Positions 36,730 through 63,369 of a stretch of DNA of 64,000 bases are shown one piece after another (the stretch's first letter is position 1; every line of letters begins with the position of its first letter). The translations under genes and the position numbers were made by a program. Source of the DNA: an uncultured virus (IMG/VR IMGVR_UViG_3300036398_005010) (taxonomy: Duplodnaviria > Heunggongvirae > Uroviricota > Caudoviricetes). The stretch lies in the IMG/VR virus record IMGVR_UViG_3300036398_005010; one strand, given 5' to 3'. The notes beneath the pieces are model-generated. The model ran no database searches and was not told the origin of the DNA. It saw only the letters and a program-made list of their open reading frames with translations.

Positions 36730-36731
36730 TG

Positions 36732-36902: not shown

Positions 36903-36905
36903 GGA

Positions 36906-37289: not shown

Positions 37290-37315
37290 GTGCGGATTGG
37301 AGAGAATGGTGAGAG

Positions 37316-37714: not shown

Positions 37715-37787
37715 GAGGGGAGGGATGATAATGATGACTGCTACGGCAGCTACCTGTGAAGCCACCCAAGAACCTGAGCGGCTACCG

Positions 37788-39333: not shown

Positions 39334-39367
39334 GGGGCGAGAGATGAGAGGACGAAGACGGAAAAGA

Positions 39368-40069: not shown

Positions 40070-40094
40070 GGGGTGAGAGAGGAGAGGATGAAGG

Positions 40095-40781: not shown

Positions 40782-40784
40782 GGG

Positions 40785-41858: not shown

Positions 41859-41902
41859 GGAGAGAAGAGGGTTGAGAGGACGGGGTTGGAAGGTGTTAAA
41901 GG

Positions 41903-42448
41903 TCAGCCGAGTTCGTCGCTGAAGCGCGCATAGAAGTGCTTCTCGAACTCGGCTTCTGAGATGCCGAGGGCGCCGAGCATGGCGTCGCTGACCAGCAAGC
42001 GGCGCAGGGCCTGCTTGCCGTCGTGGCCCAGGTCTTTGATGGACTGGAGCCGTTCGCCGGTGAACGATGCCGTCATCGGCTTGAGCACGGTGTAGACCAG
42101 TTCCTGGCTGGCCAGCAGCATGCGGATGTCGGCGTCGGCGCGGGTGGCGATTGCCAGGTCGAGCGGGTTGTTGATCTTGGTGTGCGGCTCGACTGTGGTC
42201 TTGATCCCGTGGACCACGGCATCAAGCAGGAAGCTGACCAGGTGGAGCAGCTGCGGCATGATCACGCCGCCGCCATCGAGCACGATCTGCTCGATGACGA
42301 CGGTCAGATCCAGGAGGCCGCAGCTGGGATCGGAGACCGGCAGGGTGGGCAGGGTCGTGCTGCGCGGCGGCAGCCCGCCCTCCTTGCGGAGGTTGCGGAT
42401 GCGCTCGAGCAGCTGGGACGGAGAGACGCTGTCGGGGATGTCACTCAT
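41903..42448 (-). CDS. hypothetical protein
   Basis: ATG at 42448. Confidence 0.65.
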   Translation of the reverse strand: MSDIPDSVSPSQLLERIRNLRKEGGLPPRSTTLPTLPVSDPSCGLLDLTVVIEQIVLDGGGVIMPQLLHLVSFLLDAVVHGIKTTVEPHTKINNPLDLAIATRADADIRMLLASQELVYTVLKPMTASFTGERLQSIKDLGHDGKQALRRLLVSDAMLGALGISEAEFEKHFYARFSDELG

Positions 42449-43010
42449 GAGGTTCTGGAAGAGGCGGTTGCCCGAAGGCTCGCCGGAGGTGGTTGACGGC
42501 GATCTCCAGGTCGTCGATCGAGGGGCCGATAGCCGTGGCTCGCACCTCCGGCTGCTCGATCCCGTCGGAGTCGAGGGGTATAACCCGGAAGAACGTAGCC
42601 GAATGTCCGACTTTCGTCTGCAGCTTGACAGCCGTGTCTGGCATGTCAAGCGCGGTGAGGGCGCCGAGCAGGGAGCGGACAGACCAGGGGGTCTGCTGCT
42701 CCTGGGTGGCCGGGTCGGTGGAGCCCCGGCAGGGCAGGCGCAGGACGACCGTGCTGTTGATCGGGGTCAGCAGCACCAGGTCGAGGTACGGTCTGGAGCC
42801 GTACTTAGATCCTTCGCCGTGGAAGGTGATGTCGGCGCCGACCGGGGCGCCGATGATGGCGGGACATTCGGGCCCGGGATTGTCGGCGGTCTCGCCGTAG
42901 ATGTAGAGGGTGCCGCTGGCGGAGATGCCGACGGTGGTGACGTCGGGCTCAGGTGTGGCGGGAACGACCCAGGCGGGGAGAGCCGGGTCGAGGGTTGCGA
43001 GATTGCTCAT
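42441..43010 (-). CDS. hypothetical protein
   Basis: ATG 24 nt after leader element. Confidence 0.7.
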   Translation of the reverse strand: MSNLATLDPALPAWVVPATPEPDVTTVGISASGTLYIYGETADNPGPECPAIIGAPVGADITFHGEGSKYGSRPYLDLVLLTPINSTVVLRLPCRGSTDPATQEQQTPWSVRSLLGALTALDMPDTAVKLQTKVGHSATFFRVIPLDSDGIEQPEVRATAIGPSIDDLEIAVNHLRRAFGQPPLPEPHE

Positions 43011-43061
43011 CGGAGACTGAAAGGAACGCAAGTGTGTGCACTGCTGAGAGTGCTCAACTGA

Positions 43062-43235
43062 TCAGCCAAGGGTTTTCTCGGGCTGCCAATCGAGGGGCAG
43101 CTGGATCTGCTGGGGGAGGTTGTGGATGATGCGCAGCAGGGATCGCCGCTCACGCAGCAGGCGTTCCCTGGTGTGTTCGTCGTTGATGCGCGGCAGGATG
43201 CTGTTGATCGTGTCGACACGTTCTTGGTGGGACAT
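43062..43235 (-). CDS. 57-aa hypothetical protein (MSHQERVDTIN...QQIQLPLDW...)
   Basis: Hand translation. Confidence 0.65.
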   Translation of the reverse strand: MSHQERVDTINSILPRINDEHTRERLLRERRSLLRIIHNLPQQIQLPLDWQPEKTLG

Positions 43236-43236
43236 T

Positions 43237-43581
43237 TCAGTCGGCTCTCAGGAGATTGGAATCTGGCTGAATTCCGCTATCAAGGAGACCGCGGTTAAGT
43301 AGCTCCTCGACAATGTCACGGTAGACAGGATATAGATCGTCGATCTGAGCACTGGCGAGTCTGAGCCACTCTTCTTCGGCGGCCATTTGCGCCATTTCAC
43401 CCTGAAAGCAGGGTGGATCGGGAATCTCGATTCTCTCGAACTGCCTCTCAAGGAATCTTTTGACATTGATGAGATGCTCATCACTCATGCTACAAATAGG
43501 CAGATGTCGCCCGTCTCTGGTGGTCCAGGCCGGGCCCTCTTGGTCTGAGTCGATCGCGTCGACGCGGTCTTGGTGGGACAT
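43237..43581 (-). CDS. hypothetical protein, lower GC, N-terminus duplicated from the downstream gene
   Basis: WTTRDG..I..MSDEHLIN motif; begins MSHQDRVDAID. Confidence 0.7.
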   Translation of the reverse strand: MSHQDRVDAIDSDQEGPAWTTRDGRHLPICSMSDEHLINVKRFLERQFERIEIPDPPCFQGEMAQMAAEEEWLRLASAQIDDLYPVYRDIVEELLNRGLLDSGIQPDSNLLRAD

Positions 43582-43589
43582 GGCTATAC

Positions 43590-44213
43590 TCAGTAGGAAG
43601 TCATGCCCTTGACGTCGTCCTCGGTGAGCTCAATTCCGACCTGGCGGAAGTACGGAATTGAAGCAATCGCGCAGAGTTTTTGAGCAACATCAGCGCGTCT
43701 TGCTTCGCCAACGGATGACGAGATCAGGGCGTATTGCAGCAGGAAACTGCGGCTCACCTCAAGGTTGATCTTGAGGAAGGCCGCCGGGAGCTGGCAGCCC
43801 TTGATGGCCTGCTCCTGGGCTTGGCGGCGGCGGACCGCCGAGGGACGGACGCCACCGGAGGCGACGAGCTCGCCCAGTTGTTCCGATCGGACGGCCGGCG
43901 GGGAGGCAGGGAGACGATCAGGGTCTCCCCACCCGGACTCAGGATCAAGAGGGAGCGAAGGCTCAGGTAGCTCCTGAGGCTCAGGCTCGTCCACGCCGAA
44001 GTCCAGAGTGAGGACAGAGGCCTTGAGGACTTCGTCGTAGATGACGCAGCTGTCGTCAAAGGCGAATCCTTTCTTGACGATGTCGCTGATGCTGGGCGGG
44101 AAGATGACGGTGCACTCGCCACCAGCTGCTGTCTGCTTGCTGTAGTAGGCGTAGTGCCAGCCCCCGTGGCGGAGGCTGGGCTTGGGGTCAGAGGTGATGT
44201 GGCGGACTGCCAT
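43590..44213 (-). CDS. hypothetical protein
   Basis: ATG after pyrimidine-rich leader. Confidence 0.65.
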   Translation of the reverse strand: MAVRHITSDPKPSLRHGGWHYAYYSKQTAAGGECTVIFPPSISDIVKKGFAFDDSCVIYDEVLKASVLTLDFGVDEPEPQELPEPSLPLDPESGWGDPDRLPASPPAVRSEQLGELVASGGVRPSAVRRRQAQEQAIKGCQLPAAFLKINLEVSRSFLLQYALISSSVGEARRADVAQKLCAIASIPYFRQVGIELTEDDVKGMTSY

Positions 44214-44427
44214 GTTGAGATGGAGAGACAGAGAGGAGACGACTGGAGCCAGCCCCGCACCTGCTGCCCCTGGTCGCCAGGGAGGAGCAGCGCGTCGCTG
44301 ATGCGGGGCATGGAGGGATCGCACAACTGGTTGAGTGCGAGGCGGCCGCGGCCGGACAGGGGCGACAGGAGGGCCTGCCCGGCCGGCGTTGTGACGTGAA
44401 GGAGGTCAGGCCGCGGGGCCTGGCCGC

Positions 44428-45102
44428 TCACTTGATGGACCAGTTGGTGCGCTTGTCGAGGCGGGCGCCGGCGACGGGGTCACCGGCTTTGAGCTGGGCC
44501 TTGATGGCGGCCTTGTCGGGCACGCCGCTGCAGGCCAGCTCGTACTCGGAGGGGGCGATCTCATAGAGGTCGCGCAGGGTTTCGGTGATCACGGCGGTGA
44601 TCTGGTCAGCGGCCTCGGCGTGGCCGGGCTGCAGCTTGAGCTTCACCTCGAAGCGCTTGAGGGAGTCGGGCACCAGCTCGGGGTCGACCTCGACGGCCTC
44701 GCTGGGGCGGGAGGCGACGGTGAACTCGGGCAGAGGAAAATTCTTCTGCCCGGGGTTGAGGGCGGTGAGGCAGCGGGTGAGGTAGTCGAGCAGGCGCTCG
44801 GCGGCGCGCTCTTCAGCGGCGGCCTTCTCGAGGCGGTCGGCTGCCACCTGGCGGAGGTGGGCCGCCTTGGCGAGCAGGGACTCGTGCACATGGCAGATGG
44901 CGTTCGCCTTGCGGTGCAAGACCGCCTGGTTGTCGGCGGCCTTCTCGAGGAGCTCAGTGATCAGGGCCTGGGCCTGCTCCTGCTGCTCGGGGTCATCGGA
45001 GTTGGCGAGGTCCAGGGCTAGGGCCAGCTGTCCGTCGACTTCCTGGACCTCGAGGGTGAGTTCGTACAAGGAGGTCTTGGGCTTGGAGGGGGTCAGGGTC
45101 AT
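44428..45102 (-). CDS. siphovirus Gp157-like protein
   Basis: SLYELT...K...I...S.AVEVD...PDKAAIKAQLKAG..V.GARL. Confidence 0.8.
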   Translation of the reverse strand: MTLTPSKPKTSLYELTLEVQEVDGQLALALDLANSDDPEQQEQAQALITELLEKAADNQAVLHRKANAICHVHESLLAKAAHLRQVAADRLEKAAAEERAAERLLDYLTRCLTALNPGQKNFPLPEFTVASRPSEAVEVDPELVPDSLKRFEVKLKLQPGHAEAADQITAVITETLRDLYEIAPSEYELACSGVPDKAAIKAQLKAGDPVAGARLDKRTNWSIK

Positions 45103-45295
45103 GGAGGGAGCGATGGATTTGCTGGATGTAGGAATCGGCCAGGTCCACCAAGGCCTCGATCCGGGCCAAGGCGTCGTGCTCGTAGAGCGGTGAACTTGGA
45201 CGGATGTCGGCCCGCGCCCGCTTGGCTGCCTGGTGGGCAGCGTTGCGCAGGCGGTAAAGCGGCCCGGCCGGGGCGGACCTGGAGATACTTGGCAT
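44993..45295 (-). CDS. hypothetical protein
   Basis: ATG at 45295. Confidence 0.45.
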   Translation of the reverse strand: MPSISRSAPAGPLYRLRNAAHQAAKRARADIRPSSPLYEHDALARIEALVDLADSYIQQIHRSLHDPDPLQAQDLLVRTHPRGPGSRRTAGPSPGPRQLR

Positions 45296-45340
45296 GGGAG
45301 TGGAGCCCCGGCACGTAGATGCGTGCCAGGGCAACCAGTA

Positions 45341-45727
45341 TCACGCAGCCACGGGCTCCGGCTTGGCGCCGTTGCTGCTGACCACGGGAATCGCAGCGGC
45401 AGCCTTGGCTGCCTTGGCGGCCTCCCGCAGGGCCTGCTTGCGCAGGTGGGCGGCGTAGATGGACTCGGCGGAGAGGCTGTGCACCTCGCCGTCGACGCCG
45501 GCGAAGGTCTTGCCGTGGAAGATCTCGCCGCCGGGGGCGATGTACTGGTCGGTGGGGTCCTCCTCGCCGAGGATCTCGAGCAGGTGCTCGGATTTGAAGC
45601 TGGTCCGCAGCGTGGTTTCCCGCTGGGCCTGGCCGGCCTTGCGGGCGGTGATCAGGCCAACCTCGAAGGTGGACCAGTTCTGACCGGAGAAGAAGCGGAG
45701 CTCGAGGGGACCGAGTGAGAGTTGCAT
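45341..45727 (-). CDS. hypothetical protein
   Basis: ATG 46 nt after leader element. Confidence 0.7.
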   Translation of the reverse strand: MQLSLGPLELRFFSGQNWSTFEVGLITARKAGQAQRETTLRTSFKSEHLLEILGEEDPTDQYIAPGGEIFHGKTFAGVDGEVHSLSAESIYAAHLRKQALREAAKAAKAAAAIPVVSSNGAKPEPVAA

Positions 45728-45835
45728 GAGAGTGGAGACAGAGAGGGTGAACAGTGGGCCTCTCAACAGGCGATGTGCACTGCTGAGAGGCCTCAATCAA
45801 CAGACCTAGAATCCAGAAATCGAGACAGGGCAACC

Positions 45836-46336
45836 ATGCTGCGGCAGTTCCGGGACAACTTCATGAGCGCGGCACGGGGCGGCGAGCAGTGGGTGGCTGC
45901 GGAAGCCGCCAAGCGAGCGGCCGCGGACAAGGCTGCTGGCATGGCAGCCAGCCAGGAGTACATGATGAGCAGGCCGGCCGAGACGGTGGCCGGACGAGTT
46001 GCCAGCCAGTTCGGCAAAGGCGAGAAGTGGCGGGATCAGATGGTGAGGAACCTGAGCGATCCGGGCAGAAGGTCCAGGATTGCGGCTGCTCTTGCCCCGC
46101 AGCTCAATCGGGGGCCCTTCCAGTTGACGAAACGCGGGTTTGGGGAGGCCATGAACCAGGGGATCGCCGAGAACAAGTACATCCGCCGGGGGCTGCTGCC
46201 GACCGCGATTGGCGGTGGCGGCCTGATGGCCGGCGCTGCTGTGACGACTGGCGCTCAGAACCTGATGGCTCTGATGCAGTACATGCAGGCCGGCGATCAG
46301 CAGCAGGAGCGGGTGGAACAGAGCCCGCTGGCCTGA
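45836..46336 (+). CDS. hypothetical protein (putative virion-internal type)
   Basis: After CCTAGAATC; Gly/Ala/Gln-rich C-terminus. Confidence 0.7.
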   Translation: MLRQFRDNFMSAARGGEQWVAAEAAKRAAADKAAGMAASQEYMMSRPAETVAGRVASQFGKGEKWRDQMVRNLSDPGRRSRIAAALAPQLNRGPFQLTKRGFGEAMNQGIAENKYIRRGLLPTAIGGGGLMAGAAVTTGAQNLMALMQYMQAGDQQQERVEQSPLA

Positions 46337-46340
46337 GCGG

Positions 46341-46571
46341 ATGGATAGCCGCTTCGCGGGCGATGAGGTGTCCCTGGGCCTCCTGATGGAGGAGGAGCTG
46401 ATTCGTGCTGCGCAGTTGGAGATGATCGCGCTGTTCACGCTCCAGCAGGAGCAGGAGCGGATGCGCGAGATCATGCGTCTGCGCAGCGACAAGCTGACAG
46501 GGACGTCGGCTGCGGGGTTAATGCGTGGGGCGTGGGTGAGTGGGGCAGAGGGAGTGGAGGGCTATGCCTAA
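46341..46571 (+). CDS. hypothetical protein, N-terminus MDSRFAGD
   Basis: Coupled to 45836. Confidence 0.6.
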   Translation: MDSRFAGDEVSLGLLMEEELIRAAQLEMIALFTLQQEQERMREIMRLRSDKLTGTSAAGLMRGAWVSGAEGVEGYA

Positions 46572-46834
46572 AAGGCGTCATAGGCGGAGGGGATTGGGTT
46601 GTCGCAGTGAGAGCACCGCAGGGTGGCGTCCTCCCAGTTGATGGTGGCTGCCACCACGCACCAGCCGTCGGTGCCGGTGGTGGTGGCAATGAGCTTGCGT
46701 TCGCTCTTGCAGCAGTCGCTGCAGAGTGGCTGGCCGTCGTTGGTGATGGCGTACCTGGGGTAAAGCCCAGGGAAACTGATCGGCTCGCGGACCAGGGAAT
46801 CCGCCAGCCGGAGGGAGCGGGATTGAGTGGTCAT
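46568..46834 (-). CDS. small Zn-binding phage protein
   Basis: FPGLYP..DG..LC.DC...NWED..L.C.HC...I.SAY. Confidence 0.75.
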   Translation of the reverse strand: MTTQSRSLRLADSLVREPISFPGLYPRYAITNDGQPLCSDCCKSERKLIATTTGTDGWCVVAATINWEDATLRCSHCDNPIPSAYDAF

Positions 46835-47472
46835 GCCTCTTGGTGGGCGATGGATGCCAGCCAGGGGATGACGTCGAGCTTGCTGTCGTAGAAGTGGTTT
46901 GCGGCCTCCGTGCCGAGAAGCAGGAGCCCGGCGAGGTGGGAACCATGCAGCTTCTCGAGGATCTCGCCTACAGGTCCCGCCTGTTGGATCGCCCATCCTG
47001 CGAGGCAGTGGGTGGTTCCGCATTTGCTGTGCCAGTTGGTCATGTCCAGGTGGTCAGGCTGATCCAGGACCTGCTGGGCGACTGCCTTGAGTCGCTCCTG
47101 TGAGTCGGAGGCGATAGGCAGTCCTACGGCGCCGTTCAGGTTGGCGCCGCCCAGGTTGGCGTCGTTCAGGCTGGCGCCGCGCAGGTTGGCGTCGCGCAGG
47201 TTGGCGTCGCGCAGGTCGGCGCCGCCCAGGTTGGCGTCGTTCAGGCTGGCGCCGCGCAGGTTGGCGCCGTTCAGGTAGGCGTCGCGCAGGTCGGCGCCGC
47301 GCAGGTTGGCGTCGCGCAGGTTGGCGTCGCGCAGGTCGGCGCCGCCCAGGTTGGCGTCGTTCAGGCTGGCGCCGCGCAGGTCGGCGCCGCGCAGGTTGGC
47401 GCGCTTACCGCCGGGATGGGTCCTCAGCCAGAGGGCGTGAAGGCGCAGGGTTTCAGGAAGATCGACTGGCAT
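46831..47472 (-). CDS. pentapeptide repeat protein
   Basis: A(N/D/S)L(R/G/N)(G/D) repeats, 15-bp periodicity ~47130-47400; C-terminal MTNWH..CGTTHCLAGWA. Confidence 0.95.
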   Translation of the reverse strand: MPVDLPETLRLHALWLRTHPGGKRANLRGADLRGASLNDANLGGADLRDANLRDANLRGADLRDAYLNGANLRGASLNDANLGGADLRDANLRDANLRGASLNDANLGGANLNGAVGLPIASDSQERLKAVAQQVLDQPDHLDMTNWHSKCGTTHCLAGWAIQQAGPVGEILEKLHGSHLAGLLLLGTEAANHFYDSKLDVIPWLASIAHQEA

Positions 47473-47495
47473 GACAAGAGGGGTGGGTGGGGTGG

Positions 47496-47723
47496 TCAGA
47501 GGGCACCGGCCTCCAGGGCAGCGAGCAGCTCGCGCTCCTGGTCGTCGGCGATGGCCGTCAGGACGGCGACCTGTGATGGGGTGAGGTCCCGCTCCCGGAT
47601 GGTAACGAAGGTCGTCCCCGGGAACAGGGGCCGCAGCTGCTGCACCAGGCGCTCCACCTGGCGGGCGGAGGCGCGGACGCAGATGCCCGGGTCTGCTGGG
47701 GATTGGTAGATGTCGAGGAACAT
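47496..47723 (-). CDS. hypothetical protein
   Basis: TGATG coupling. Confidence 0.6.
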   Translation of the reverse strand: MFLDIYQSPADPGICVRASARQVERLVQQLRPLFPGTTFVTIRERDLTPSQVAVLTAIADDQERELLAALEAGAL

Positions 47724-48040
47724 CAGGAGTGAGCGAGAGGACGGTTGGCGGCCATCTCGAGGAGGACGGCCTTGGGGAGATTGCGGCGGGTGCCGACGAT
47801 CTCCTGGAGCTGCCGACGCGTGAGCGCCGAGAGGTCTTCCGCAGAGACGGAGAGTTCGCCTGCTGTGGCAGGCGGGGGTAGAGGTGGATCAGCCGCCGGC
47901 GCGAGCAGCCGGGGCTGGGGAGTGGTCTTGGGAGCGAGGATGAGTTCCCTGGCGATGAAGATCGCCACGGGGGTGAGCCTGCGGGCGACAGCCAGGGTGA
48001 CGGCTGCTGCCCACAGGCAGGCGTTCAGGAAGAGGCGCAT
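47723..48040 (-). CDS. membrane-anchored protein with SAP-like C-terminus
   Basis: Hydrophobic N-terminus; LSALTRRQLQEIVG...K..L. Confidence 0.55.
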   Translation of the reverse strand: MRLFLNACLWAAAVTLAVARRLTPVAIFIARELILAPKTTPQPRLLAPAADPPLPPPATAGELSVSAEDLSALTRRQLQEIVGTRRNLPKAVLLEMAANRPLAHS

Positions 48041-48216
48041 CAGCGTCGGCAGGGGGGACGGAGGACGGACCAGGCAGCGCACTGGGGCACCGGATTACCG
48101 GATGCCCTGGCTGCCAGGTCCTTGATGTCGTTGCCGGTAGCCGGGACAAGGAAGCCGGCGGCAACGAGGATCACCAGCAGCTGGGCTGTGGTGATGGTGC
48201 GTTGGATGGTTTGCAT
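48040..48216 (-). CDS. small membrane/secreted protein
   Basis: Hydrophobic N-terminus, coupled. Confidence 0.55.
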   Translation of the reverse strand: MQTIQRTITTAQLLVILVAAGFLVPATGNDIKDLAARASGNPVPQCAAWSVLRPPCRR

Positions 48217-48275
48217 GAGAGGAAGCCCCACCCGGGCGGGCGGGGCAGAGAGGACGGACGGAGATGGAGCGCGAC

Positions 48276-48977
48276 TCAGAAGGGCACTTCCTCGTCGGTG
48301 GGCTCGCCGTAGCCGGCGGCAACCGGGGCGCTTGCCGCAGCTTGCACCGGCTGGGCCGGCGCGTCAAGCCGCGGCAGGGGCTTGAAGTGGCTGAGCATCC
48401 ACTCGGAGCGAGGTTCTCCGATGCGGAAGAGCTTCTCGCCGTTGTCGCCCGTGAGGGCGGTCTCGTAGACGGGGGTGCCGTCTTCGAGGTGGCCGACCAG
48501 GGCGCCGCGGACTTGCGCCCGGGGCGAGAAACCACGCTCCGTGAGTTCGTTGCGCGTGCAGTGCTCGGGGAGCCGGGGCTTTTCATAGGCGCCGATGCGG
48601 ACCAGGCGCACGTCGGAGCCGCTTTCGTAGTGGTCACGGATGCGCTCAGCGAGTTCGCCGATCGCGGTGAACCACTTGCGGGCTCCGTAAACGCGCTGGC
48701 CGGTGCGCCTGTCCAGGGAGCTGTACTGGGTGGCGATCTCGAGGATTAGGGTCTTGCCGTCGCGGCTCCAGCGCATGGTGTCCCGATCGAAGGACGGGCA
48801 GTCGCGCTGGATCCAGACGGTTTGCTCCAGCTGGTCGCGGCGCTCGGGCTCCTGGGCCTCGGAGGCCTGGGCTTCGAGCTGCTGCTCCAGGTCGTTGTTG
48901 CGACCTTGGGCGACAGCCAGGGCTGCCTGCAGCTCGGCGATGCGGGCTTCCAGCTGGGTCTTGGTGATGGTGGGCAT
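48276..48977 (-). CDS. SSB-like OB-fold protein with N-terminal coiled coil and inserted module
   Basis: KWFTAIGELAERI....G..VRIGAY and acidic tail DEEVPF. Confidence 0.6.
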   Translation of the reverse strand: MPTITKTQLEARIAELQAALAVAQGRNNDLEQQLEAQASEAQEPERRDQLEQTVWIQRDCPSFDRDTMRWSRDGKTLILEIATQYSSLDRRTGQRVYGARKWFTAIGELAERIRDHYESGSDVRLVRIGAYEKPRLPEHCTRNELTERGFSPRAQVRGALVGHLEDGTPVYETALTGDNGEKLFRIGEPRSEWMLSHFKPLPRLDAPAQPVQAAASAPVAAGYGEPTDEEVPF

Positions 48978-49121
48978 TGAGAGGACCCGGTGGTGTTCCG
49001 GGGTGAGAAGGACGTTGAGCCGCACAACAGGGCGTGTGCACTGCTGAGCGAGCTCACGAAGAAAAGCCCCACCCCAGGGATCCGGGGTGGGGCGTGAAGG
49101 GGGTGCCAGATGTGGCGTTGG

Positions 49122-49571
49122 TCAGAAAGGTACTGGGTCGCCTGGGGTGGACGATGGACGCTTGAGATGCGAATAGCCGGGGCCCATGTGGTGATAGCCG
49201 TCCCAGTCGGAATCGGATCCAGGGCGAAGGTAATACTGCCTGAGATTTCCATAGGGCTCAGGCAGTCCGTTAGACCAAGTCTGAAGGGACGGAATGTAGG
49301 GAGCTCGGCTTTCGGGAGAGTAGCGAGCGGCGAGCTGGTCGCGCTCGACCATTTCCTGCCAGGCGAGGGCGGCAGCCTGGGGACTGTCCCAGACCACGGG
49401 GACTAGGTTCTCGTCGAGATAGCCGCTTGGGGTGTTAGGCGGCAGGGACTTTGCTCGCCTGAGATGAGCGTTTAAGATGGCATCGACCTGGTCTTGACGC
49501 AGGGGCTGCCTAATAGGAAGATGTGGGGATCTTCCTGGCAACTGAAGGAGGTATTGGGGGTTTCTCAGCAT
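49122..49571 (-). CDS. hypothetical cassette gene, lower GC, ends VPF
   Basis: Bounded by two 53-bp repeats; CCTAGCCT upstream. Confidence 0.65.
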   Translation of the reverse strand: MLRNPQYLLQLPGRSPHLPIRQPLRQDQVDAILNAHLRRAKSLPPNTPSGYLDENLVPVVWDSPQAAALAWQEMVERDQLAARYSPESRAPYIPSLQTWSNGLPEPYGNLRQYYLRPGSDSDWDGYHHMGPGYSHLKRPSSTPGDPVPF

Positions 49572-49657
49572 TTGAATGAGTCGACTGTCTACAGGCTAGG
49601 CAGAAGCCCCACCCCAGGGATCCGGGGCGGGGCGTGAAGGGGGTGCCAGATGTGGCA

Positions 49658-49936
49658 CTAGGCCGCGATGGTCTCCAGCTGACGCCGGAGATCGCGGATG
49701 AGGGGACGGTTGGCGCCAATGATGGCGGTGGCCTGGCTGAGGCAGGCCTGGTCGACCGGGCTGATGCCGCGGCCGTCCTGGAGGTGCTCCAGGGCCTCGA
49801 GGACCCCGGAGCGAACGAGCTCCAGGGAGTAGTTGATCTGGCCGCTGAGAACGCGGCCGTCTGAGGCGGTGCGCACGTTGGCGCGGGCCAGCAGGCGGAG
49901 CTGCTGGGACATGTCGTAGATGGCAGTTTCGCTCAT
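49658..49936 (-). CDS. hypothetical protein
   Basis: Leader element upstream, repeat downstream. Confidence 0.7.
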   Translation of the reverse strand: MSETAIYDMSQQLRLLARANVRTASDGRVLSGQINYSLELVRSGVLEALEHLQDGRGISPVDQACLSQATAIIGANRPLIRDLRRQLETIAA

Positions 49937-50071
49937 CGGAGACAGGGGCGCTGAGCGCCCGGTGAGAGGACGGAGCCGTAGGCAGGTGCTGTGCACTGCT
50001 GAGATGGCTCACTGAAAAAGCCCCACCCCAGGGATCCGGGGCGAGGCGGGAAGGGGGTGCCAGATGTGGCA

Positions 50072-50218
50072 CTAGAAAGGGATTGCGGACTCGAGCCGCT
50101 CATTGATCTGGCGGTCGAGGTCCAGCGCGAGGGCTTGTGCCTCCTCGTGGGCCTGGCGATCGCCGGCCTCGAGGTTGGCATGGGCGAGCCGGCGGGCAAG
50201 GGCCAGCTCGGAGAACAT
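50072..50218 (-). CDS. 48-aa hypothetical protein ending IPF
   Basis: MFSELALARR...ESAIPF. Confidence 0.65.
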   Translation of the reverse strand: MFSELALARRLAHANLEAGDRQAHEEAQALALDLDRQINERLESAIPF

Positions 50219-50301
50219 GGTGTGGAGATCCACGGGACAAGAGCCCGGCTGCCGCCGGGGAGAGAGGACGGGGAAGGGGGTGCCAGATGTGGCACCAGTG
50301 C

Positions 50302-50448
50302 TCACCGGTGGATGAGCGGGTAGAGGGGGTCGAAGAACAGACCCCAGTCGCCGTGGGCCATACCCAGGCGGATGGTGAAGCCGAGCAGGCAGCAGCCCGC
50401 CAGGTAGACGGCGGGGCGGCGCTCGGCGAAGGAGACGATGCTGCGCAT
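50302..50448 (-). CDS. 48-aa membrane peptide
   Basis: MRSIVSF...AVYLAGCCLLGFTIRLG. Confidence 0.6.
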   Translation of the reverse strand: MRSIVSFAERRPAVYLAGCCLLGFTIRLGMAHGDWGLFFDPLYPLIHR

Positions 50449-50576
50449 CGGAGTAGCCCGGCTGCCGCCGGGGCGAAGGGTCGTGTGAGCCGGAGTCAGG
50501 TGCTGTGCACTGCTGAGGAGGCTCACGAGAAGAGCCCCGCACGGATCGCTCCGGCGGGGCAGAAGGAGAGGAAGAG

Positions 50577-50942
50577 TCAGACCTTGGCGATGGTTCCATT
50601 GGAGAACCGGTAGCGGGTCATCTCGGCGTTGCGGGCATAGCCGCGCGCCTCGAACTCGTGGCCTTCGGCCATTGTGAGGACGATCGACGCGGCGGTACCG
50701 CGCCGGTTGAACTGGATGTCCTCCTTGAGTGGAGGAAAGCCGGGAAACCGGCGGTAGTGCGTCTTGTGAGGTTGGCCGGTGCCGCACTTGCCGACGGCGG
50801 AGCCCACCTTGAAGACAAGGCGGTTGCCGATGAGGTAGGAGATCCCACCGGCGACGCGGACTTCCTGCGCACCGGCAGGGATGCTGATAGCGGGCACCCC
50901 CGAGACCTGGAAGGTGCGGGGAGTGGAGATCGTGATAGCCAT
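50577..50942 (-). CDS. hypothetical protein, first gene of the early array
   Basis: ATG 16 nt after leader element; followed by terminator-like hairpin 50534-50560. Confidence 0.7.
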   Translation of the reverse strand: MAITISTPRTFQVSGVPAISIPAGAQEVRVAGGISYLIGNRLVFKVGSAVGKCGTGQPHKTHYRRFPGFPPLKEDIQFNRRGTAASIVLTMAEGHEFEARGYARNAEMTRYRFSNGTIAKV

Positions 50943-50979
50943 GAAACGAAGCAGCGCGTGTGCACTGCTGAGGAGGTTC

Positions 50980-51760
50980 ATTGGTGGATGATGTACTGTG
51001 GATTGATCTCAATCGCAAGCGATAGCGAGTGATCAAACCGTACGCCCCCGCTGACGCGAACGCGAGGAGTGTAGGGCGTTATGCGTCGCGTGGATATGAG
51101 GCGTGATGCTATTGATGTTAGGGGTGAAAGCGGTTGCGGCGCAGGGGTTGTGGCTTGTGTGCGCGTATGCTGCGCGTGAGGGTAGGGTATAAGGAACTAG
51201 GGAAAAGATAGGGGTTGTAGCGTGGGATTATATCGCGATGAATAGGGGCGCGTGTCGCGGATTATCGCGAACAATCGCGTGGTGTTGAGGAGTGAGTGCG
51301 CTTGAGCGGCGGCCGCGGCCGATGATCATCGGCTGTTGAGCAGCTGCTGCTGCAGCGTCGCTGATGTTGCGCGCGTGATTACACTTGCTGCGCTCGTGAT
51401 TACGCTTGCTGCGCGTGTCGCTGCTGCTGCTTCTGCTCGCGTGTTAAACAATCGTCGCTGAAGATTGCTGCTGCTCTCGCTTGCTGCTATCGCATCTCGC
51501 GCTCGCTTCGCTCTTACATCGCGGCGCATCCCCTTCAGTCTCCAATTCTTTTTTTGTTTGCCCGCCTTCCAAGCGCGTAGGGGGTATTTGACGACTGCCG
51601 CGCGCCGCAAAAAATTTTGCCGGTTATATAGGGGCCGTTTGCTTCGGATCTTTGATTCATGGGGCGAAAACGCCCATCCACGTGCATGAAAGCCCTGGAA
51701 ATCGGCGCCGATAGACTGATCTGACAGCAAAACCAGCGCGGGTTCGGCCTCGCCACGCAG
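50980..51760. other. largely non-coding strand-switch region; candidate genome end / packaging site
   Basis: Divergence point of gene orientation; strong dinucleotide bias, palindromes at 51310-51321 and 51318-51333, 21-bp tandem repeat ~51372-51417, A/T tracts. Confidence 0.5.
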
Positions 51761-54736
51761 ATGTTCGAGCAAATTGGCGGCATGAGGCCCTGGCCGGCGG
51801 CGCAATCGCGGCGCAACATGCGCGGGCCGCGGCCAATGGGCCCGGCCGGGCTCGGGATGCCCCAGGAAAACGGCCCAACGCTGCTGTTTCCGCGGCGGCC
51901 AGAACCTGCGGCAGTGGCGGATCCCTTCGGATTGAGGGTCATGACCGGCCCGGCGTACGGCGAGGCCCCGTACGGAGTGCGGCCGCGGGACGGTTACACC
52001 TTCGAGCTCGCCGGAACCGTTGACGATGGGCGGCTGCGGACCGTTCCGGTCGCGCCAGATGGCGCCTACAGCACCAATTACGCCCTGGTCGCGCCCACCG
52101 GCCCGCGTTCGGCGGCCTTTTCGCCCTCTGTGTCGGTCGAGGACACGGGCAGGGTGCGGGATGACACGGCAAGACAGCTCGCGCTGCCCGGTTTTGACCT
52201 CCCGGTTGAGGATTCAGTGACCGGCTGGGGGCAGCGGCCCCCTGGATCGGGCGATCGGCGGCCCCAGAGGCCCTCGAACGCCTCGAAAAGCCAGTCCCTG
52301 CCCAACCTGATCGCAGGATTGACCGACGAAATCGAAATCTCGCCGGCTGAGAGCTACGGCGGGAACGTCCGCTACACCCTGACGCGCGACGACCTGCTGC
52401 GCGGGGCCTCGACGCCGGAGGAGGTGGAGCAGCGGCTGCGTGTGTGGAGTGGATTTGCCAGGGCAAACCCCGGCAATCGCGTGCCGCGCAGCATCGAACA
52501 GGCAGAAGCTCCTCGCCAGCCAGGTGTGCTGAACCGGCAGACCGGTCTACCGGACGATCGTCCCGTCTACCTGCGCGGCGGCTCCCTGGCCGACCAGATC
52601 GAAGCCGGTGTCCTGAATACCGACAGGGGCGGAACCCGCTCGATCGATGCCTCCGGCGAGCGAACCCTGCAGAAAGGGTCCGCCGAGCTGTACCCCTCCG
52701 GCACGGTTCCCGTCGTCATGGCGGGCCCCGGCGGCCGCCTCTCGGTCCAGGAGTTCGATCCCACGCGCCTGGTGGAAACCTGGGATGTGGACCCCGACAA
52801 CACCGCTGCGTTCCTGCGCACCAAGGACGCCAATGTCGGTGACGTCGTTCAACGGGTTCTCCAGGAGGCTCAGACCCCGGTTGTGCGTGGAAGCGAGCTC
52901 CTTCGCCGCGGATTCACGCCGCTTGAGCAGCCCGATGGCACCCTGGTTGGCAACCTGAGCGACGGCACCCCGGTCTACGCCCCCGTCGACCGTGAGACGG
53001 GTAGTCCCATCACCGGCGCCAGCGGCGAGCAGCTGTTCCGCCTGGGCTCGCCGACGAGTCGCAACGCCGACGACATCCGCGCCGGCGTGGCACCCGTGAT
53101 TGGCGGGAGCTTCCAGATGGTGCCGGACACAGGCACTTCAGTTGGCGCCGGCGGCCTTGAGGCAGGGCTGCGGCGTGGCTTCACGTTCTCCCCAGGCCGC
53201 GCCGAGGGCGGCGATCTGCCGCTGTTCAACATCACCACCCCGGAGCAGGCCAAGGCCTACGTGCGGTCGATCGTCAGCCAGTCCGGTGATCACCCCCTGG
53301 TGACCAGCCTCTACGCGATGGACTCGACCGGGCGCCCCGTGCAGCTCCTGCAGCCCGCAATCGGCGCCGACGGGCTGGCCACGGGGCACTTCAACCCAGT
53401 GCGCAGCCAGTGGATCGGCCCGGCAGCCTTGATGCCCGGTGACTCTGAAGCCGCAATCGCCGCTCGCAAGGGCGCCGAGAAGTGGGGTGCTCGGCCGGCG
53501 CAGTACGGCGGTGGTGGACTGAGCCGGGAAGACGTCTCCCTGGTTGGCCTGGCTTCAAACCTGCAGAAGGGCGCCTTCATGCAAGAGCCAGCAACGGTCG
53601 GGAATCCGCTGGCGCGCATGATCGCCTCCGGGCAGCTCCCCGTGGAAACCCTTGAGGACCCACGCCTGGCGTCGCTGTTCGCGCCCGGTAGCCAGGCCAG
53701 GATTCGACTCAACCAGGACGTGATCGCTGCCGGCGGAAGCGCGCCATTCACCGACGGACTGATGCCTGTCGTGGTAGGGCAGACCTCTCCTGGAGTGAGC
53801 CCATTCCAGGCGTTCACGGCCACCCCGCTGCCGCCCCGGGAGACCGCGCCCGTCCAGCGAGAGTTGGCCATTCCGACCCCAGGCGGCTCCACGCTTCAGC
53901 GCGCGATGGCGCAGTCCCTGTTTGGACTGCCCAGTGAAAGCCGGGGCCGGCCGTCTGGGCGTCGGGCCCCACTGCCGGTCGCCTCTGAGCCTGCGCCTCA
54001 GCCGGCGCCCGGGGAATACGTGGTCGACGCTGACGGACAGATGCGCATGACCACTGGCCCGCTACCCGATCGCTTCAGCCCGGACCCGGCCGATGCGGTC
54101 GCGGCGTACATGGCGGGCCAGGCGAGAGAGCAATGGCCGAGCGGCGTCCGCTGGACACAGGCGCGACCGCTGGAGGGAACCTGGAACGAAGGGCAGCCGT
54201 TCCCCGTGTTCCGTGGCGGAAACTCCGCACGGGGAAGAGCGGCGGCGTCTCAGCAGAACGAGTACATCCAGCCCGGGCTGCTGCCCCGCATCGGGGAAGA
54301 AGTGCGTCGATCCCTGGCGGACGTCGAGCTTCCGGTCGGGCGCGCCGCGGGTCCATACGCCAGGGCCCCTTACTACGGCGTCGACCTGGATCCCTATCAG
54401 CAGGCGGCCACCGCTCGCGGCGCTGCGCGCGGCTTCGACTACGGGGCCATGGCTGCGGCCCTGGGTGATGGCACCTCTCGCGCCGTTGCGCCGGTTCGTC
54501 GCACGGAGCCTTGGCGTCCCGATCCAACCGCCCCCGGCAGTCAGCAGCTGGTGCGTCGCATGGGCGACGTCATGACTGGCGCTCCGGTTGTGCCAGATGC
54601 GAATGTCGGCAGCCCTGAGCACGAGCGCGCGATGCGTCAGCTGGCGATGCGATTGCGCAATCGGGCACAGAGCCAGACCCTGGGCCCCGTTGACTGGAGG
54701 GCCGAGCTGTCTTCACCTGTGCAAGGGCTTCTTTGA
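51761..54736 (+). CDS. 991-aa Pro/Gly/Arg-rich protein (putative internal virion protein)
   Basis: Long ORF heading the plus-strand block; no recognisable enzyme motif. Confidence 0.8.
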   Translation: MFEQIGGMRPWPAAQSRRNMRGPRPMGPAGLGMPQENGPTLLFPRRPEPAAVADPFGLRVMTGPAYGEAPYGVRPRDGYTFELAGTVDDGRLRTVPVAPDGAYSTNYALVAPTGPRSAAFSPSVSVEDTGRVRDDTARQLALPGFDLPVEDSVTGWGQRPPGSGDRRPQRPSNASKSQSLPNLIAGLTDEIEISPAESYGGNVRYTLTRDDLLRGASTPEEVEQRLRVWSGFARANPGNRVPRSIEQAEAPRQPGVLNRQTGLPDDRPVYLRGGSLADQIEAGVLNTDRGGTRSIDASGERTLQKGSAELYPSGTVPVVMAGPGGRLSVQEFDPTRLVETWDVDPDNTAAFLRTKDANVGDVVQRVLQEAQTPVVRGSELLRRGFTPLEQPDGTLVGNLSDGTPVYAPVDRETGSPITGASGEQLFRLGSPTSRNADDIRAGVAPVIGGSFQMVPDTGTSVGAGGLEAGLRRGFTFSPGRAEGGDLPLFNITTPEQAKAYVRSIVSQSGDHPLVTSLYAMDSTGRPVQLLQPAIGADGLATGHFNPVRSQWIGPAALMPGDSEAAIAARKGAEKWGARPAQYGGGGLSREDVSLVGLASNLQKGAFMQEPATVGNPLARMIASGQLPVETLEDPRLASLFAPGSQARIRLNQDVIAAGGSAPFTDGLMPVVVGQTSPGVSPFQAFTATPLPPRETAPVQRELAIPTPGGSTLQRAMAQSLFGLPSESRGRPSGRRAPLPVASEPAPQPAPGEYVVDADGQMRMTTGPLPDRFSPDPADAVAAYMAGQAREQWPSGVRWTQARPLEGTWNEGQPFPVFRGGNSARGRAAASQQNEYIQPGLLPRIGEEVRRSLADVELPVGRAAGPYARAPYYGVDLDPYQQAATARGAARGFDYGAMAAALGDGTSRAVAPVRRTEPWRPDPTAPGSQQLVRRMGDVMTGAPVVPDANVGSPEHERAMRQLAMRLRNRAQSQTLGPVDWRAELSSPVQGLL

Positions 54737-60719: not shown

Positions 60720-60753
60720 ACAATCGCGAGGTATATCGCTTAGATTGCGTCTT

Positions 60754-63369
60754 ATGGCTGACGCAGCGATTACCAGGGCACACAAGCAGGCCGCGCGCCT
60801 GGCCGCCAAGCGTGTCCCCCGGCGCTCCTCTGCTGATGCCACCCCCAGCGAACACGTCCGCAAAGCGCGCGAGAACTTCAGCTACTTCTGCACGGCGATG
60901 GGCAAGCCGCCGGTCGCGCACATGCAGGAGTGGCACCGGCAGCTGATCACCGGCGACAGCAACGACCACCTGATGGATGTGTCGGGCCCTAACACCTGCC
61001 TGCTGTCCCCGCGGGGGCCCCTCGATCTGGCGACACCGGTGCTGACACCGACCGGCTGGCGCCCGTTGCGCGGCATCGAACCCGGCGACGAGGTCTACGC
61101 CTCCAGCGGCCGCGTGACCGTGGTCGAGGAGGTCCTGGATTACGGCACGGCCCCCTGCTGGGAGGTGTCGTTCAGTGACGGCACCTCGATGGTCTGCGAC
61201 GACAGCCATCGTTTCGAGGTGCGCAAGGCGGCCGGCGGCCCGTGGCAGGAGTGCACCCTGGAGATGCTGCGCACGGGCGCCCTGCTGCGCCAAGGCGCCG
61301 CCCCCAGTGATGGCACTCCCTGGCTGACCCGCTGGGGCCTGCCGCGCTGGGCGGTGCCGATCACCTCGCCGGTGGCCCTGCCCGAGGCCCCGCTGGTGCT
61401 GGATCCGTACCTGATGGGCGTCCTGCTGGCGCGCGGCGGCCTTTCTGGCGCGGCGGTGCGCTTCACTAGTGGGGACGACGACCTGGTAGCCCGGGTGGCC
61501 GGCGCCCTGCCCCGCGGCTGCCAGCTGGGCCGGATCAGCGCCAAGACCATCTGCTGGTCGATCAGCGGCATCCCGGTTCACCTGCAGGGCAAGCGCACCA
61601 AGCGAGCCCCGCGCAACCCGATCCTGCCGCTGCTGGAGATCTTCGGGTTGTGGGGCTGCCGCGTGCCGGATCGGCCGATGCCGGCGGTGTTCCTGCGAGG
61701 TTCGATCTTGCAGCGGCTGGCCCTGCTACAGGGGATGCTGGACGCAGCCGGCAGCAGCCGCCCGGGCGGGGCGATCTCCCTGCCGCAGCGCTCAGAGGCG
61801 GTCGCCAATGGCCTGGCGGAACTGGTGCGTTCCCTGGGTGGGTTGGCCCAGGTCAAGCCGATCCGCCGCCCGAGCGGCGGCGATGGCTTCATGGTCGAGG
61901 TCCTGCTGCCGCCCGAGCTGGAGCCGTTCCACTCAGGCGCCAAGACCGCGCTGTACCACAAGCACTGCGAAAACCGCCGCCGGCCACTGCGCCGCACGAT
62001 CACCGGCATCCGCCCGGCGGGTGAACGGGAGATCGGCTGCATCACGGTCGAGAGCCCCCTGCAGAACTTCCTGATTCGGGACTACGTGGTCTCCTGCAAC
62101 TCGGCCAAGAGCACCGTGATCGGGCTGCTCTGCTCGTGGCTGATCGGCCGGCACACCCTGGCCAAGCAGCTGCTGCGCATCCTCTACGTGTCGTTCAACA
62201 TCGACGTGGCGCGCGGCAAGAGCCTGGCGATCAAGAACACGATCCAGTCGGGCGAGTACCAGGAGATCTTCCCCTGCGTGCGGCTCAGCAAGACCCGCAC
62301 CGCCGATGAGCTCTGGTCGATCGACTTCGATTTCGCCGGCATCGATGTGCGCGGTGAGGACGCCTTCACGCTGGCCTGCGCCGGCCTGCAGGGCACGATC
62401 ACCTCCAAGCGCTCGAGCCTGGTGATCCTGGATGACTTGATCAAATCCAAGAAGTCGATCAGCAACCCGGAGGTGCGCCGGGAGATGGAGGGCAACTGGA
62501 ACAGCGTGATCGTACCGACGATGTTCCAGGGCGCCCGGGCGATCGCCCTGGGGACCCGTTTCCACTTCGATGACATGTTCGCCACGACGTTCGTCGAGAA
62601 GAACGGCTGGCATGTGATGACCCAGGCGGCGCTGGACTTTGATGACGACGGCACGCCGCGCTCCTACTGGGAGGGGATGTGGAGCGCGCGCTACCTGCTG
62701 GAGCTGCAGCGCAAGGACCCGATCGCGTTCGCCTACCAGTACCTCAACAAGGCGGTGCGCTCCACCGAGCTGGGCATGGCGCCGGACCTGTTCGTCAAGG
62801 GGGTGGTGCCGGACGTCTTCGATGAGATCGGCGTCGGGATCGACTTCTCCTCAGGCCTGCGGGAGCGCAGCGACTACACGGTGTTCATGCTGGGCGGCCG
62901 CGTGGACGACAAGGCCTACGTGATCGACATGCGCCGGATTCGCAGCATGGGCAACATCGAGAAGATCGAGGCCCTCTGCGACATGCTGCACGAGTGGAAC
63001 CTGGTCACCAAGGACGAGGCCGGCCGCTACCTGTCGACCTTCTCCGAGGTGGCGATCTGGCCGGAGTCGGTCGGCTACCAGAAGTCGTTCGAGGGGGACT
63101 TCAAGCGGGTGGCCTACCAGGAATGGGGGCTGACCAACCTGCGCGTGCAGCCGGTGACCGGGGTGCGCGGCGACAAGCTGGCCCGCTTCCGCGGCGTGAT
63201 GGGCCTGTTCCAGACCCACCGGGTGATCTTCAACAAGTACCGGGACTTCCAGGTGGTCTTCGATGAGGTGGTCAACATGGGGCACTCGTCCCATGACGAC
63301 TGCGCTGACGCCCTGCAGATCCTGCTGGACCGGCTGTTCCGCCGCGGCAACATCGAGGTGGAGTATTGA
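60754..63369 (+). CDS. terL: terminase large subunit containing an intein
   Basis: Walker A PRG/SAKST split by intein, Walker B VILDD, GTRFH.DD, GIDF...SDYT, HDDCADA. Confidence 0.95.
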   Translation: MADAAITRAHKQAARLAAKRVPRRSSADATPSEHVRKARENFSYFCTAMGKPPVAHMQEWHRQLITGDSNDHLMDVSGPNTCLLSPRGPLDLATPVLTPTGWRPLRGIEPGDEVYASSGRVTVVEEVLDYGTAPCWEVSFSDGTSMVCDDSHRFEVRKAAGGPWQECTLEMLRTGALLRQGAAPSDGTPWLTRWGLPRWAVPITSPVALPEAPLVLDPYLMGVLLARGGLSGAAVRFTSGDDDLVARVAGALPRGCQLGRISAKTICWSISGIPVHLQGKRTKRAPRNPILPLLEIFGLWGCRVPDRPMPAVFLRGSILQRLALLQGMLDAAGSSRPGGAISLPQRSEAVANGLAELVRSLGGLAQVKPIRRPSGGDGFMVEVLLPPELEPFHSGAKTALYHKHCENRRRPLRRTITGIRPAGEREIGCITVESPLQNFLIRDYVVSCNSAKSTVIGLLCSWLIGRHTLAKQLLRILYVSFNIDVARGKSLAIKNTIQSGEYQEIFPCVRLSKTRTADELWSIDFDFAGIDVRGEDAFTLACAGLQGTITSKRSSLVILDDLIKSKKSISNPEVRREMEGNWNSVIVPTMFQGARAIALGTRFHFDDMFATTFVEKNGWHVMTQAALDFDDDGTPRSYWEGMWSARYLLELQRKDPIAFAYQYLNKAVRSTELGMAPDLFVKGVVPDVFDEIGVGIDFSSGLRERSDYTVFMLGGRVDDKAYVIDMRRIRSMGNIEKIEALCDMLHEWNLVTKDEAGRYLSTFSEVAIWPESVGYQKSFEGDFKRVAYQEWGLTNLRVQPVTGVRGDKLARFRGVMGLFQTHRVIFNKYRDFQVVFDEVVNMGHSSHDDCADALQILLDRLFRRGNIEVEY
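61018..62100 (+). mobile_element. intein (361 aa), class-3-like, with degenerate LAGLIDADG endonuclease
   Basis: Starts PLDLATPVLTPTGW, block B CDDSHRF, block F GCITV, ends VVSCN|S. Confidence 0.9.

Follow-up and report, generated by a model that had tools for sequence, protein, structure and literature searches.

The 64,000-nt stretch of DNA analysed here (henceforth the window) belongs to an uncultured virus of the Caudoviricetes (IMG/VR record IMGVR_UViG_3300036398_005010), which appears from its genes to be an S-EIV1-like freshwater cyanophage with a base composition of about 65% GC. Two oppositely oriented blocks of genes meet in it: leftward genes of an early type extend from about position 4.5 kb to position 50943, and rightward genes, which encode in order a 991-aa protein, a lysin-like protein, TerL and a virion protein, start from 51761. 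Between this leftward block and the rightward lysis, terminase and virion block lies a non-coding spacer of about 570 bp (about 50975–51545), in which the dinucleotide steps GG and CC are depleted far beyond chance. We regard this spacer as a cis-acting control region of the phage that is under an unusual constraint at the level of dinucleotides. The spacer and its edges contain the following elements:

50954–50965: alternating purine-pyrimidine run of 12 nt
50959–50972, minus strand: nearest copy of a leftward promoter-like 14-mer (CTCAGCAGTGCACA on the minus strand), 15 nt upstream of the ATG at 50943; left edge of the spacer
51050–51312: left arm, rich in G and poor in C, its plus strand lacking CC (i.e., its minus strand lacking GG), with ten runs of three or four G
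51156–51170: alternating purine-pyrimidine run TGTGTGCGCGTATGC, 15 nt, the longest in the whole window
51310–51321: exact 12-bp palindrome CGGCCGCGGCCG
51318–51333: exact 16-bp palindrome GCCGATGATCATCGGC
51310–51333: GC-rich symmetric core formed by the overlapping CGGCCGCGGCCG and GCCGATGATCATCGGC, holding the only CC steps in 480 nt and identical in the independent contig L001
51326–51529, minus strand: 67-codon open reading frame (ORF), rich in Ala, Ser, Arg and Thr, with GCA, CGA and GTA codons
51332–51523: right arm, without CC or GG, its plus strand rich in GCTGC, CTGCTG and GCGTG; internally repetitive
51368–51415: tandem repeat, period 21 nt, 2.3 copies
51549–51555, plus strand: T7 tract followed by GTTTG, the T-run being invariant in a 10-sequence alignment
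51581–51615, plus strand: sigma-70-like rightward promoter (TTGACG at 51588–51593, a 16-nt GC-rich spacer and AAAAAT; 9 of 12 matches); right edge of the spacer
51609–51618: A6T4 tract

Depletion of GG and CC steps

On the plus strand, CC starts at only four positions in and around this region (51048, 51313, 51319 and 51530), such that, as a preliminary description of this stretch had it, the step is absent from 51050–51312 and from 51321–51529 and occurs between them solely in the palindromic core. No other CC-free gap in the window is as long as the two that result (265 and 211 nt), the third in length being 139 nt. On the same strand GG starts at 51331 and then at 51523, leaving 192 nt (51332–51523) with neither step; the runner-up in the 64 kb is 54 nt long. 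These 192 nt, i.e., the right arm, are made up of 54 G, 58 C, 59 T and 21 A, from which 17.5 CC and 15.2 GG steps would be expected and none of either is observed, and they contain an excess of GC (37 vs. 16.3 expected) and CG (23 vs. 16.3). The two palindromes, the 21-nt repeat and the A/T tracts, which the same description had placed next to the biased stretch, were found as described there.

We found that chance is a poor explanation of this pattern, in line with the earlier judgement. A first-order Markov model of the window puts the probability that 192 nt contain neither CC nor GG at 2e-16 per start position and 1.4e-11 window-wide; when the bases of the right arm were shuffled 200,000 times, not one shuffle was free of both steps. 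When (CC+GG) observed/expected ratios were computed over 200 nt along the sequence, the spacer gave the minimum of the 64 kb (0.03), with the best values elsewhere at 0.55–0.6. The left arm is weaker evidence, being simply C-poor and G-rich (38 C and 113 G): it contains no CC against 5.5 expected, 29–30 of its 38 C belong to a GC or CG step, and the window-wide probability of its 265 nt without CC is 1.6e-3. Taken as a whole, the depletion is real, local and maintained.

The region is carried at 98.4% identity by an independent IMG/VR contig (L001), and contigs from three of four independent lake metagenome runs bridge it; since independent contigs contain it, it is not an assembly artefact, which was one of the ways in which the bias might have been dismissed. 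The exception is run X6. In that run contigs break at 51127/51156, and their summed depth over 51004–51170 is 977, whereas the adjoining DNA to the left and right has about 182; the sample seems to contain other, more abundant DNA with which a short segment of the left arm is shared.

Another way to dismiss the bias would have been to attribute it to the 67-codon ORF at 51326–51529. ORFs of the window's own arms, including this one, had no protein-level match in the corresponding region of any relative. Other ORF matches across relatives were translations of the conserved promoter and T-tract DNA, the exceptions being a near-identical twin (L060) and a few matches of 15–44 aa between close regions. 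The ORF is probably not a gene, and its codons are, in our reading, atypical of this GC-rich phage; the lack of a conserved ORF and these codons together argue that it is not the cause of the bias. A structured RNA found little support either, as in Rfam 15 the best overlapping match (isrG) scored 14.7 bits against a gathering score of 100, and four tests of RNA folding in the arms gave z-scores of −1.55, −0.96, −2.62 and −0.56, the lowest being that of the left arm as minus-strand RNA. Finally, the remaining intergenic DNA of the phage (6,235 nt pooled) has ordinary odds (i.e., observed/expected ratios) of CC and GG (1.00 and 0.94, compared with 0.92 and 0.91 in coding DNA), so the bias is not generic to non-coding DNA. 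In our best explanation the spacer acts as DNA and not via a protein or a structured RNA.

Flanking elements and relatives

Both edges of the spacer carry promoter-like elements that point outwards. On the left, the exact 14-mer TGTGCACTGCTGAG occurs seven times in the window (vs. 0.96 expected), always on the plus strand, at 36634, 43035, 45774, 49035, 49990, 50504 and 50959 (span 36634–50972), and each copy sits between a terminator-like hairpin and the ATG of a leftward gene. Relatives carry ATGCACTGCTG(AG), and 27 copies from the window and its relatives give one extended consensus. This motif bears no resemblance to sigma-70 promoters and is probably a phage-specific promoter. On the right, a conserved block (51543–51615 in the window) comprises a tract of seven or eight T, GTTTG, about 25 nt further on GGGGNNTTTNAYG-N6-GCGCGSCGCA, and an A-rich hexamer resembling a −10 element. 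It was found in 24 IMG/VR loci (L052–L075) and appears to be a host-type promoter heading the structural arm, as well as the best DNA marker of the sub-lineage. A scan of a genome collection with this right motif returned 26 matches, which were spread over unrelated taxa and thus identified no host. Searching by the left motif yielded 12 loci, none ending in the spacer, and a left-anchored search with a Gp157-like protein yielded three loci only.

We considered whether the spacer itself might be an array of decayed leftward promoters and rejected this, as position weight matrices built from the 27 copies showed no excess of matches over dinucleotide shuffles (full motif: 0 vs. 0.3 expected; left half: 52 vs. 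46 ± 7; right half: 0 vs. 1.1). The spacer resembles the leftward motif in dinucleotide vocabulary only. Nor was there a conserved internal promoter of the sigma-70 type: in a strict scan, 14 of 16 regions had no match on either strand.

The 24 loci defined by the right promoter motif reduce to 16 non-redundant ones, one of which is the near-identical twin, leaving 15 relatives for comparison; the nearest record (G001) has no coverage of 44000–52000. All 15 show the bias at the syntenic position in a weaker form, with CC odds of 0.29–0.92 and GG odds of 0.42–0.96 (mean 0.60 for both), compared with means of 0.95 and 0.86 in their coding flanks, and with raised GC (1.45 vs. 1.13 in flanks) and CG odds (1.28 vs. 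1.06). Their CC-free runs measure 93–276 nt, and where 231 nt or more of the region are present in a relative the runs without both CC and GG measure 45–118 nt. Two of three complete relatives, G003 and G004, have the lowest (CC+GG) observed/expected ratio of their whole genome in the syntenic region (0.57–0.58 vs. a median of 0.98). The bias is absent in the more distant G002, whose TerL is 60% identical, and in the isolate S-EIVl (CC odds 1.23, GG odds 0.74).

This composition is kept where the sequence itself is lost. What is kept comprises a scarcity of GG and CC, an abundance of GC, CG and TG steps, alternating purine-pyrimidine runs, short tandem repeats specific to each lineage, a left part rich in G, a GC-rich core and an asymmetry between the strands. 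In a 10-sequence alignment the interior of the spacer has 39% column identity and only its two edges align; in close pairs of relatives the region is conserved to the same degree as its flanks. All seven differences between the window and L001 in 51050–51529 create no CC, nor any GG in the right arm, an outcome with a chance probability of 0.069. The bias is thus a maintained property of one sub-lineage, of which this phage is the extreme case.

What the spacers share is a vocabulary of short words. In all 17 rows compared (the window, its twin and the 15 relatives), alternating purine-pyrimidine runs of at least 8 nt make up 7–22% of the spacer and 0–5% of the coding flank, and the longest such runs reach 15–20 nt. 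The most enriched words are CGCGTG, GCGCGT, GCGTGC and GCTGCT, with CGTGTG also near the top, and the words are strongly oriented when counted against their complements (GCGTG 74:9, CGCGTG 35:5, CTGCTG 24:1, TGCTGC 29:2). Internal repetitiveness was clear in five of 14 relatives (0 of 200 shuffles as high) and borderline in a sixth (4 of 200). The GC skew of the spacer is +0.2 to +0.3 in its left two-thirds and about 0 near the T-tract. The core is of more than one type: the palindromes of this phage have as their counterpart in eight distinct relatives (L052, L055, L065, L053, L075, L062, L070 and L073) the word TTTGGCSCC, located 270–400 nt upstream of the right promoter motif and forming the only conserved island inside their spacers, and G003 and G004 have neither. 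In several relatives TTTGGCSCC is preceded by CCCAC..GGTGGG, the two parts of which could pair. We also examined whether the oriented words might reflect a genome-wide polar, Chi-like word, and rejected this: GCGCGTG is distributed 15:1 in the window, but 3:6 in G004, 5:7 in G003 and 4:3 in G002.

Packaging and other possible roles of the spacer

None of the six functional readings of the spacer that we considered is established. The one we rate highest, though only tentatively, is that it may be a packaging recognition region or a terminus (cos or pac type) where the structural arm begins. We infer this link to packaging from the position of the spacer, from the core as the sole GG/CC island, from contigs that start at the core, and from an analogy with mycobacteriophage L5. 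The symmetric GC-rich core (51310–51333) would be the site at which DNA is cut; the GG/CC-poor arms would be readily deformable DNA that serves for the assembly of the packaging proteins and offers no second copy of the GG/CC-containing target in the core. The rightward arm that follows the spacer carries the lysin-like gene, TerL and the virion protein, and conserved outward-facing promoter elements lie on both sides. Also in favour of this role are the minimum of the (CC+GG) ratio here and in G003 and G004, the composition maintained in all 15 relatives, and the substitutions relative to L001.

Known cos regions are among the closest known systems. In phage lambda the layout is cosQ-cosN-cosB, and in cluster-A mycobacteriophages such as L5 cos separates a leftward early arm from a rightward one whose lysis genes come before the terminase. 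The spacer resembles these in comprising a few hundred non-coding bases that head the structural arm and in having a core that is GC-rich and partly symmetric, with repeats and A/T tracts to its sides, and the phage shares with L5-like phages the arrangement of a leftward early arm and a rightward arm with lysis genes ahead of the terminase. It differs in that its terminase is non-adjacent, no small subunit was recognised and its core is not conserved across the sub-lineage. To our knowledge, cos regions have not been described as showing a dinucleotide-level constraint such as the loss of GG and CC. Two other phages, T7 (with arrays of short repeats next to its terminal repeat) and T5 (with an injection-stop region that contains repeats, palindromes and DnaA boxes), have end regions that are likewise non-coding DNA dense in short repeats, palindromes and box-like motifs near early promoters; the spacer differs from them in showing neither evidence of a terminal repeat nor sequence similarity, and its hallmark is a dinucleotide composition, not a repeated motif.

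The evidence on ends comes from assembled contigs, of which all 24 runs found consist; a contig has one depth figure and cannot show the ends of molecules. With this in mind, the contig behind locus L072 starts exactly within the homologous core of relative L065 (between TTTGG and CCCCGGAGCG), and the contig behind L071 starts about 7 nt past the core position, as judged against L075. Among 17 partial IMG/VR contigs with the right motif, four begin inside the region, seven within 1100 nt upstream of the motif (147, 266, 366, 392, 1031, 1049 and 1057 nt), and none ends within 1500 nt downstream of it. These starts at the core are suggestive of a terminus.

Several observations weigh against a packaging role. 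All seven near-complete contigs with the motif (82–88 kb) hold the region internally, contigs of three of the four lake runs run through it, and two complete records, G002 and G003, are closed by overlaps of k-mer size (127 and 88 nt), as is characteristic of circular assembly graphs. The same three facts rule out fixed ends without redundancy and leave cos, terminal-repeat and pac ends unaffected. At their other end, the contigs of about 33 kb that start at the spacer run into coding sequence that is variable and unrelated, and a comparison of close strains shows the left block to be mosaic; the breaks may therefore just mark the divergence of co-occurring strains. TerL lies 9.2 kb downstream and not adjacent to the spacer, and a small terminase subunit was not recognised in the window. 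The core, as described above, is not conserved across the sub-lineage (TTTGGCSCC in eight relatives, neither type in G003 and G004), and the arms are fully GG/CC-free only in this phage and its 98% twin, with the other relatives partly depleted.

A more specific version of the packaging role, which we regard as improbable, is that the arms are blank so that CGGCCGCGGCCG in the core is the sole site of action for a GG/CC-reading enzyme within its loading zone; candidates for such an enzyme are the nuclease of the terminase, a nickase or an activity that modifies DNA in a specific context. If this were true, a site of cleavage or marking would be defined by the sequence desert around it and not by a long recognition sequence, and the relatives would show a relaxed form of the same principle, with a 40% loss of GG and CC steps.

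In the main rival reading, the composition would instead serve the mechanics of the duplex. It is conceivable, if doubtful, that the spacer is a twist-absorbing stretch of non-B DNA that buffers or senses torsion between outward-firing promoters and so uncouples or tunes the two arms. Its alternating runs (as Z-DNA), palindromes (as cruciforms), CTG-type repeats and G-runs would leave the B-form under negative supercoiling, and the scarcity of GG and CC would result from keeping neighbouring G and C in alternation. The formation of Z-DNA upstream of active promoters is established, and alternating CG/TG runs of about 12 nt or more, which are prone to it, are present here (15 and 12 nt) and reach up to 20 nt in relatives. 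The enrichment of alternating runs over the flanks in all 17 rows, together with the longest such run of the window, agrees with this explanation, as do the alternating pattern of the top hexamers CGCGTG, GCGCGT, GCGTGC and CGTGTG, the perfect 12- and 16-bp palindromes, the location between conserved divergent promoter elements, and a composition kept without sequence, which fits a physical role. On the other hand, a structural role of the duplex has no strand preference, yet words such as GCGTG and CTGCTG are oriented; much of the right arm is a non-alternating repeat of the GCT type (29 CT and 16 TC steps), most alternating runs are short for a flip from B to Z, and the flanking promoters are known as sequences, which do not indicate their strength or activity. 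The spacer is comparable to Z-DNA "flipon" tracts beside or between divergent promoters in its alternating CG/TG runs (3- to 20-fold over flanks) between outward-facing promoters, and unlike them in its one-strand orientation of words and its large non-alternating parts, with the Z form here being predicted. A replication origin, in which lineage-specific direct repeats would bind an initiator, the adjacent T-tract and A6T4 would melt and flanking transcription would activate the site, is in our estimate unlikely. The spacer is a unique non-coding region with a 21-nt repeat here and repetitiveness in the relatives noted above, its words run in one direction as direct repeats would, A/T tracts are adjacent (51549–51555 and 51609–51618), the phage encodes a primase-helicase, and three 7-of-9 matches to a DnaA box of the GTGGAT type (GGTGGATGA, TGTGGATTG and CGTGGATAT), all in one orientation, lie at its left end (50983–51097). 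Against this, the replication genes are 37 kb distant, the repeat amounts to 2.3 copies, the oriented words GCGTG, CGCG, GCTGC and GTG show no helical phasing, GTGGAT is found in only six of 15 regions, stable GC and CG steps are commoner than in the surroundings and, as a weak inference, there is no change of sign in GC skew of the kind that an origin or terminus would need. Iteron-type phage and plasmid origins resemble the spacer in that their direct repeats and oriented words have A/T tracts next to them and transcription on their flanks, and they differ from it in the number and phasing of repeats, the proximity of replication genes and its stable GC-rich steps.

The remaining explanations concern RNA, mutation and attack on the DNA. 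An untranslated leader or non-coding RNA is quite improbable, despite the fact that, read outwards from the core, the RNA of both arms would be free of GG, and hence of Shine-Dalgarno-like sites, with the leftward RNA C-rich and G-poor. In its favour, the minus strand has no GG over 480 nt except in the core and the right-arm plus strand has none, the content of words is strand-specific, and the left arm as minus-strand RNA folds with a z-score of −2.6. No Rfam family matched, however, the three other folds reach only −0.6 to −1.6, the region lacks a conserved sigma-70-like promoter of its own (see above) and has no excess of the phage's own promoter motif, and no RNA run was among the runs that contain the stretch. 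Loading of Rho on the C-rich arm is also unlikely, given that cyanobacteria lack Rho and that an NblA gene (see below) points to a cyanobacterial host. Growth of simple DNA by replication slippage from GG/CC-free seeds (GCT, GCG, GCGTG), with the bias an unselected by-product, would account for the right arm, where 31 shared 8-mer pairs compare with 8.0 ± 4.8 in dinucleotide-preserving shuffles (0 of 500 as high), and for the five or six repetitive relatives. The left arm, however, is not repetitive (5 pairs vs. 2.8) and eight of the 14 relatives are depleted without being repetitive (e.g., CC and GG odds of 0.39/0.42 in L073 and 0.36/0.51 in L068), so slippage alone is insufficient; moreover, independent lineages with different repeat units are all depleted of GG and CC, and other intergenic DNA of the phage is unbiased. 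We therefore hold this origin of the bias to be very improbable. Least credible to us is the avoidance of a GG/CC-dependent attack or mark (restriction, a CRISPR protospacer-adjacent motif or base modification) on a first-injected segment, which the preliminary description had proposed. The extreme absence of GG and CC and the presence of nucleotide-metabolism genes (dCTP-deaminase-like, ThyX and dNMP kinase) speak for it, but GG and CC abound in the early genes next to the spacer, the 192 protected nt include nothing that needs expression, and neither a DNA methyltransferase nor a G- or C-modifying enzyme was found in 98 scanned ORF translations. For restriction sites and protospacer-adjacent motifs in particular the idea did not survive, since the target words occur at expected levels genome-wide (GGCC 752 vs. 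812 expected, CCGG 603 vs. 565, and 531 CCWGG sites) and other intergenic DNA is undepleted.

S-EIV1-like cyanophages are a widespread freshwater lineage about whose cis-acting DNA almost nothing is known, and this spacer is the clearest non-coding landmark of their genomes. Literature searches on related regions and on this lineage, judged by listings and abstracts and leaving aside the original S-EIV1 paper, brought up no such region. A control element in which nothing but the dinucleotide steps is conserved would offer a clear natural example of selection that acts either on the mechanics of DNA or on a signal being absent, and elements of this kind escape alignment-based annotation. The spacer shows where to seek ends, a packaging signal or an origin, and a compositional scan could find it in new genomes.

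The phage, its genes and further observations

The placement of the window among S-EIV1-like cyanophages draws on TerL (60745–63369), whose nearest counterpart, with 50% identity in the parts that matched, is the TerL of Synechococcus phage S-EIVl, and on the genes for NblA, a DUF3288 protein, ThyX and a pentapeptide-repeat protein. At least half of the sampled words of 49000–54000 were found in 17 of 22 lake or freshwater metagenome runs, possible source runs being set aside. The genes outside the spacer that bear on its setting are:

1902–2261, plus strand: NblA phycobilisome-degradation gene (E-value 2.4e-8)
12169–14709: replication genes (primase-helicase), 37 kb from the spacer
50577–50943, minus strand: first leftward gene, 122 aa, no family match
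51761–54736, plus strand: first rightward gene, 991 aa, no family match, predicted to be mostly disordered

A blastn search of 50000–53000 against GenBank phages gave no match, and neither did tblastn with the 991-aa protein; searches of a protein atlas, NCBIfam and PDB sequences left this protein untyped, and the primase domain likewise. The plus-strand GC skew is +0.13 to +0.24 in the leftward block by the junction and about 0 across the rightward block, both in the window and in the whole record of G004. This difference indicates that the arms are not mirror images and that C is markedly abundant on the strand that codes for the early block.

The TerL of the window has 874 aa, and a tblastn search with it skips query residues 93–452 (corresponding to 61021–62100) in five relatives (G007–G011), where the open frame is 511–521 aa long. 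The inserted 360 aa have a weak LAGLIDADG match (E-value 0.005, below the curated cut-off) and also match PHROG families of helicase loaders, primases and other terminases, the pattern of an intein at an ATPase motif. Two HNH endonuclease genes (1244–2110, plus strand; 40095–40781, minus strand) probably encode homing endonucleases. The pentapeptide-repeat protein is encoded in the early block (46831–47472, minus strand) and its gene contains a tandem repeat of 18 copies of 15 nt (47128–47402). Pentapeptide-repeat proteins can mimic DNA and bind gyrase, which would make this one of interest if the spacer senses supercoiling. Lastly, three palindromes are absent from the window, namely TCCGGA (0 vs. 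9.9 expected), ATGCAT (0 vs. 4.9) and GATATC (0 vs. 4.0), and CTAG is halved (47 vs. 99 expected); host restriction systems may have left these traces, which have no relation to the GG/CC bias.

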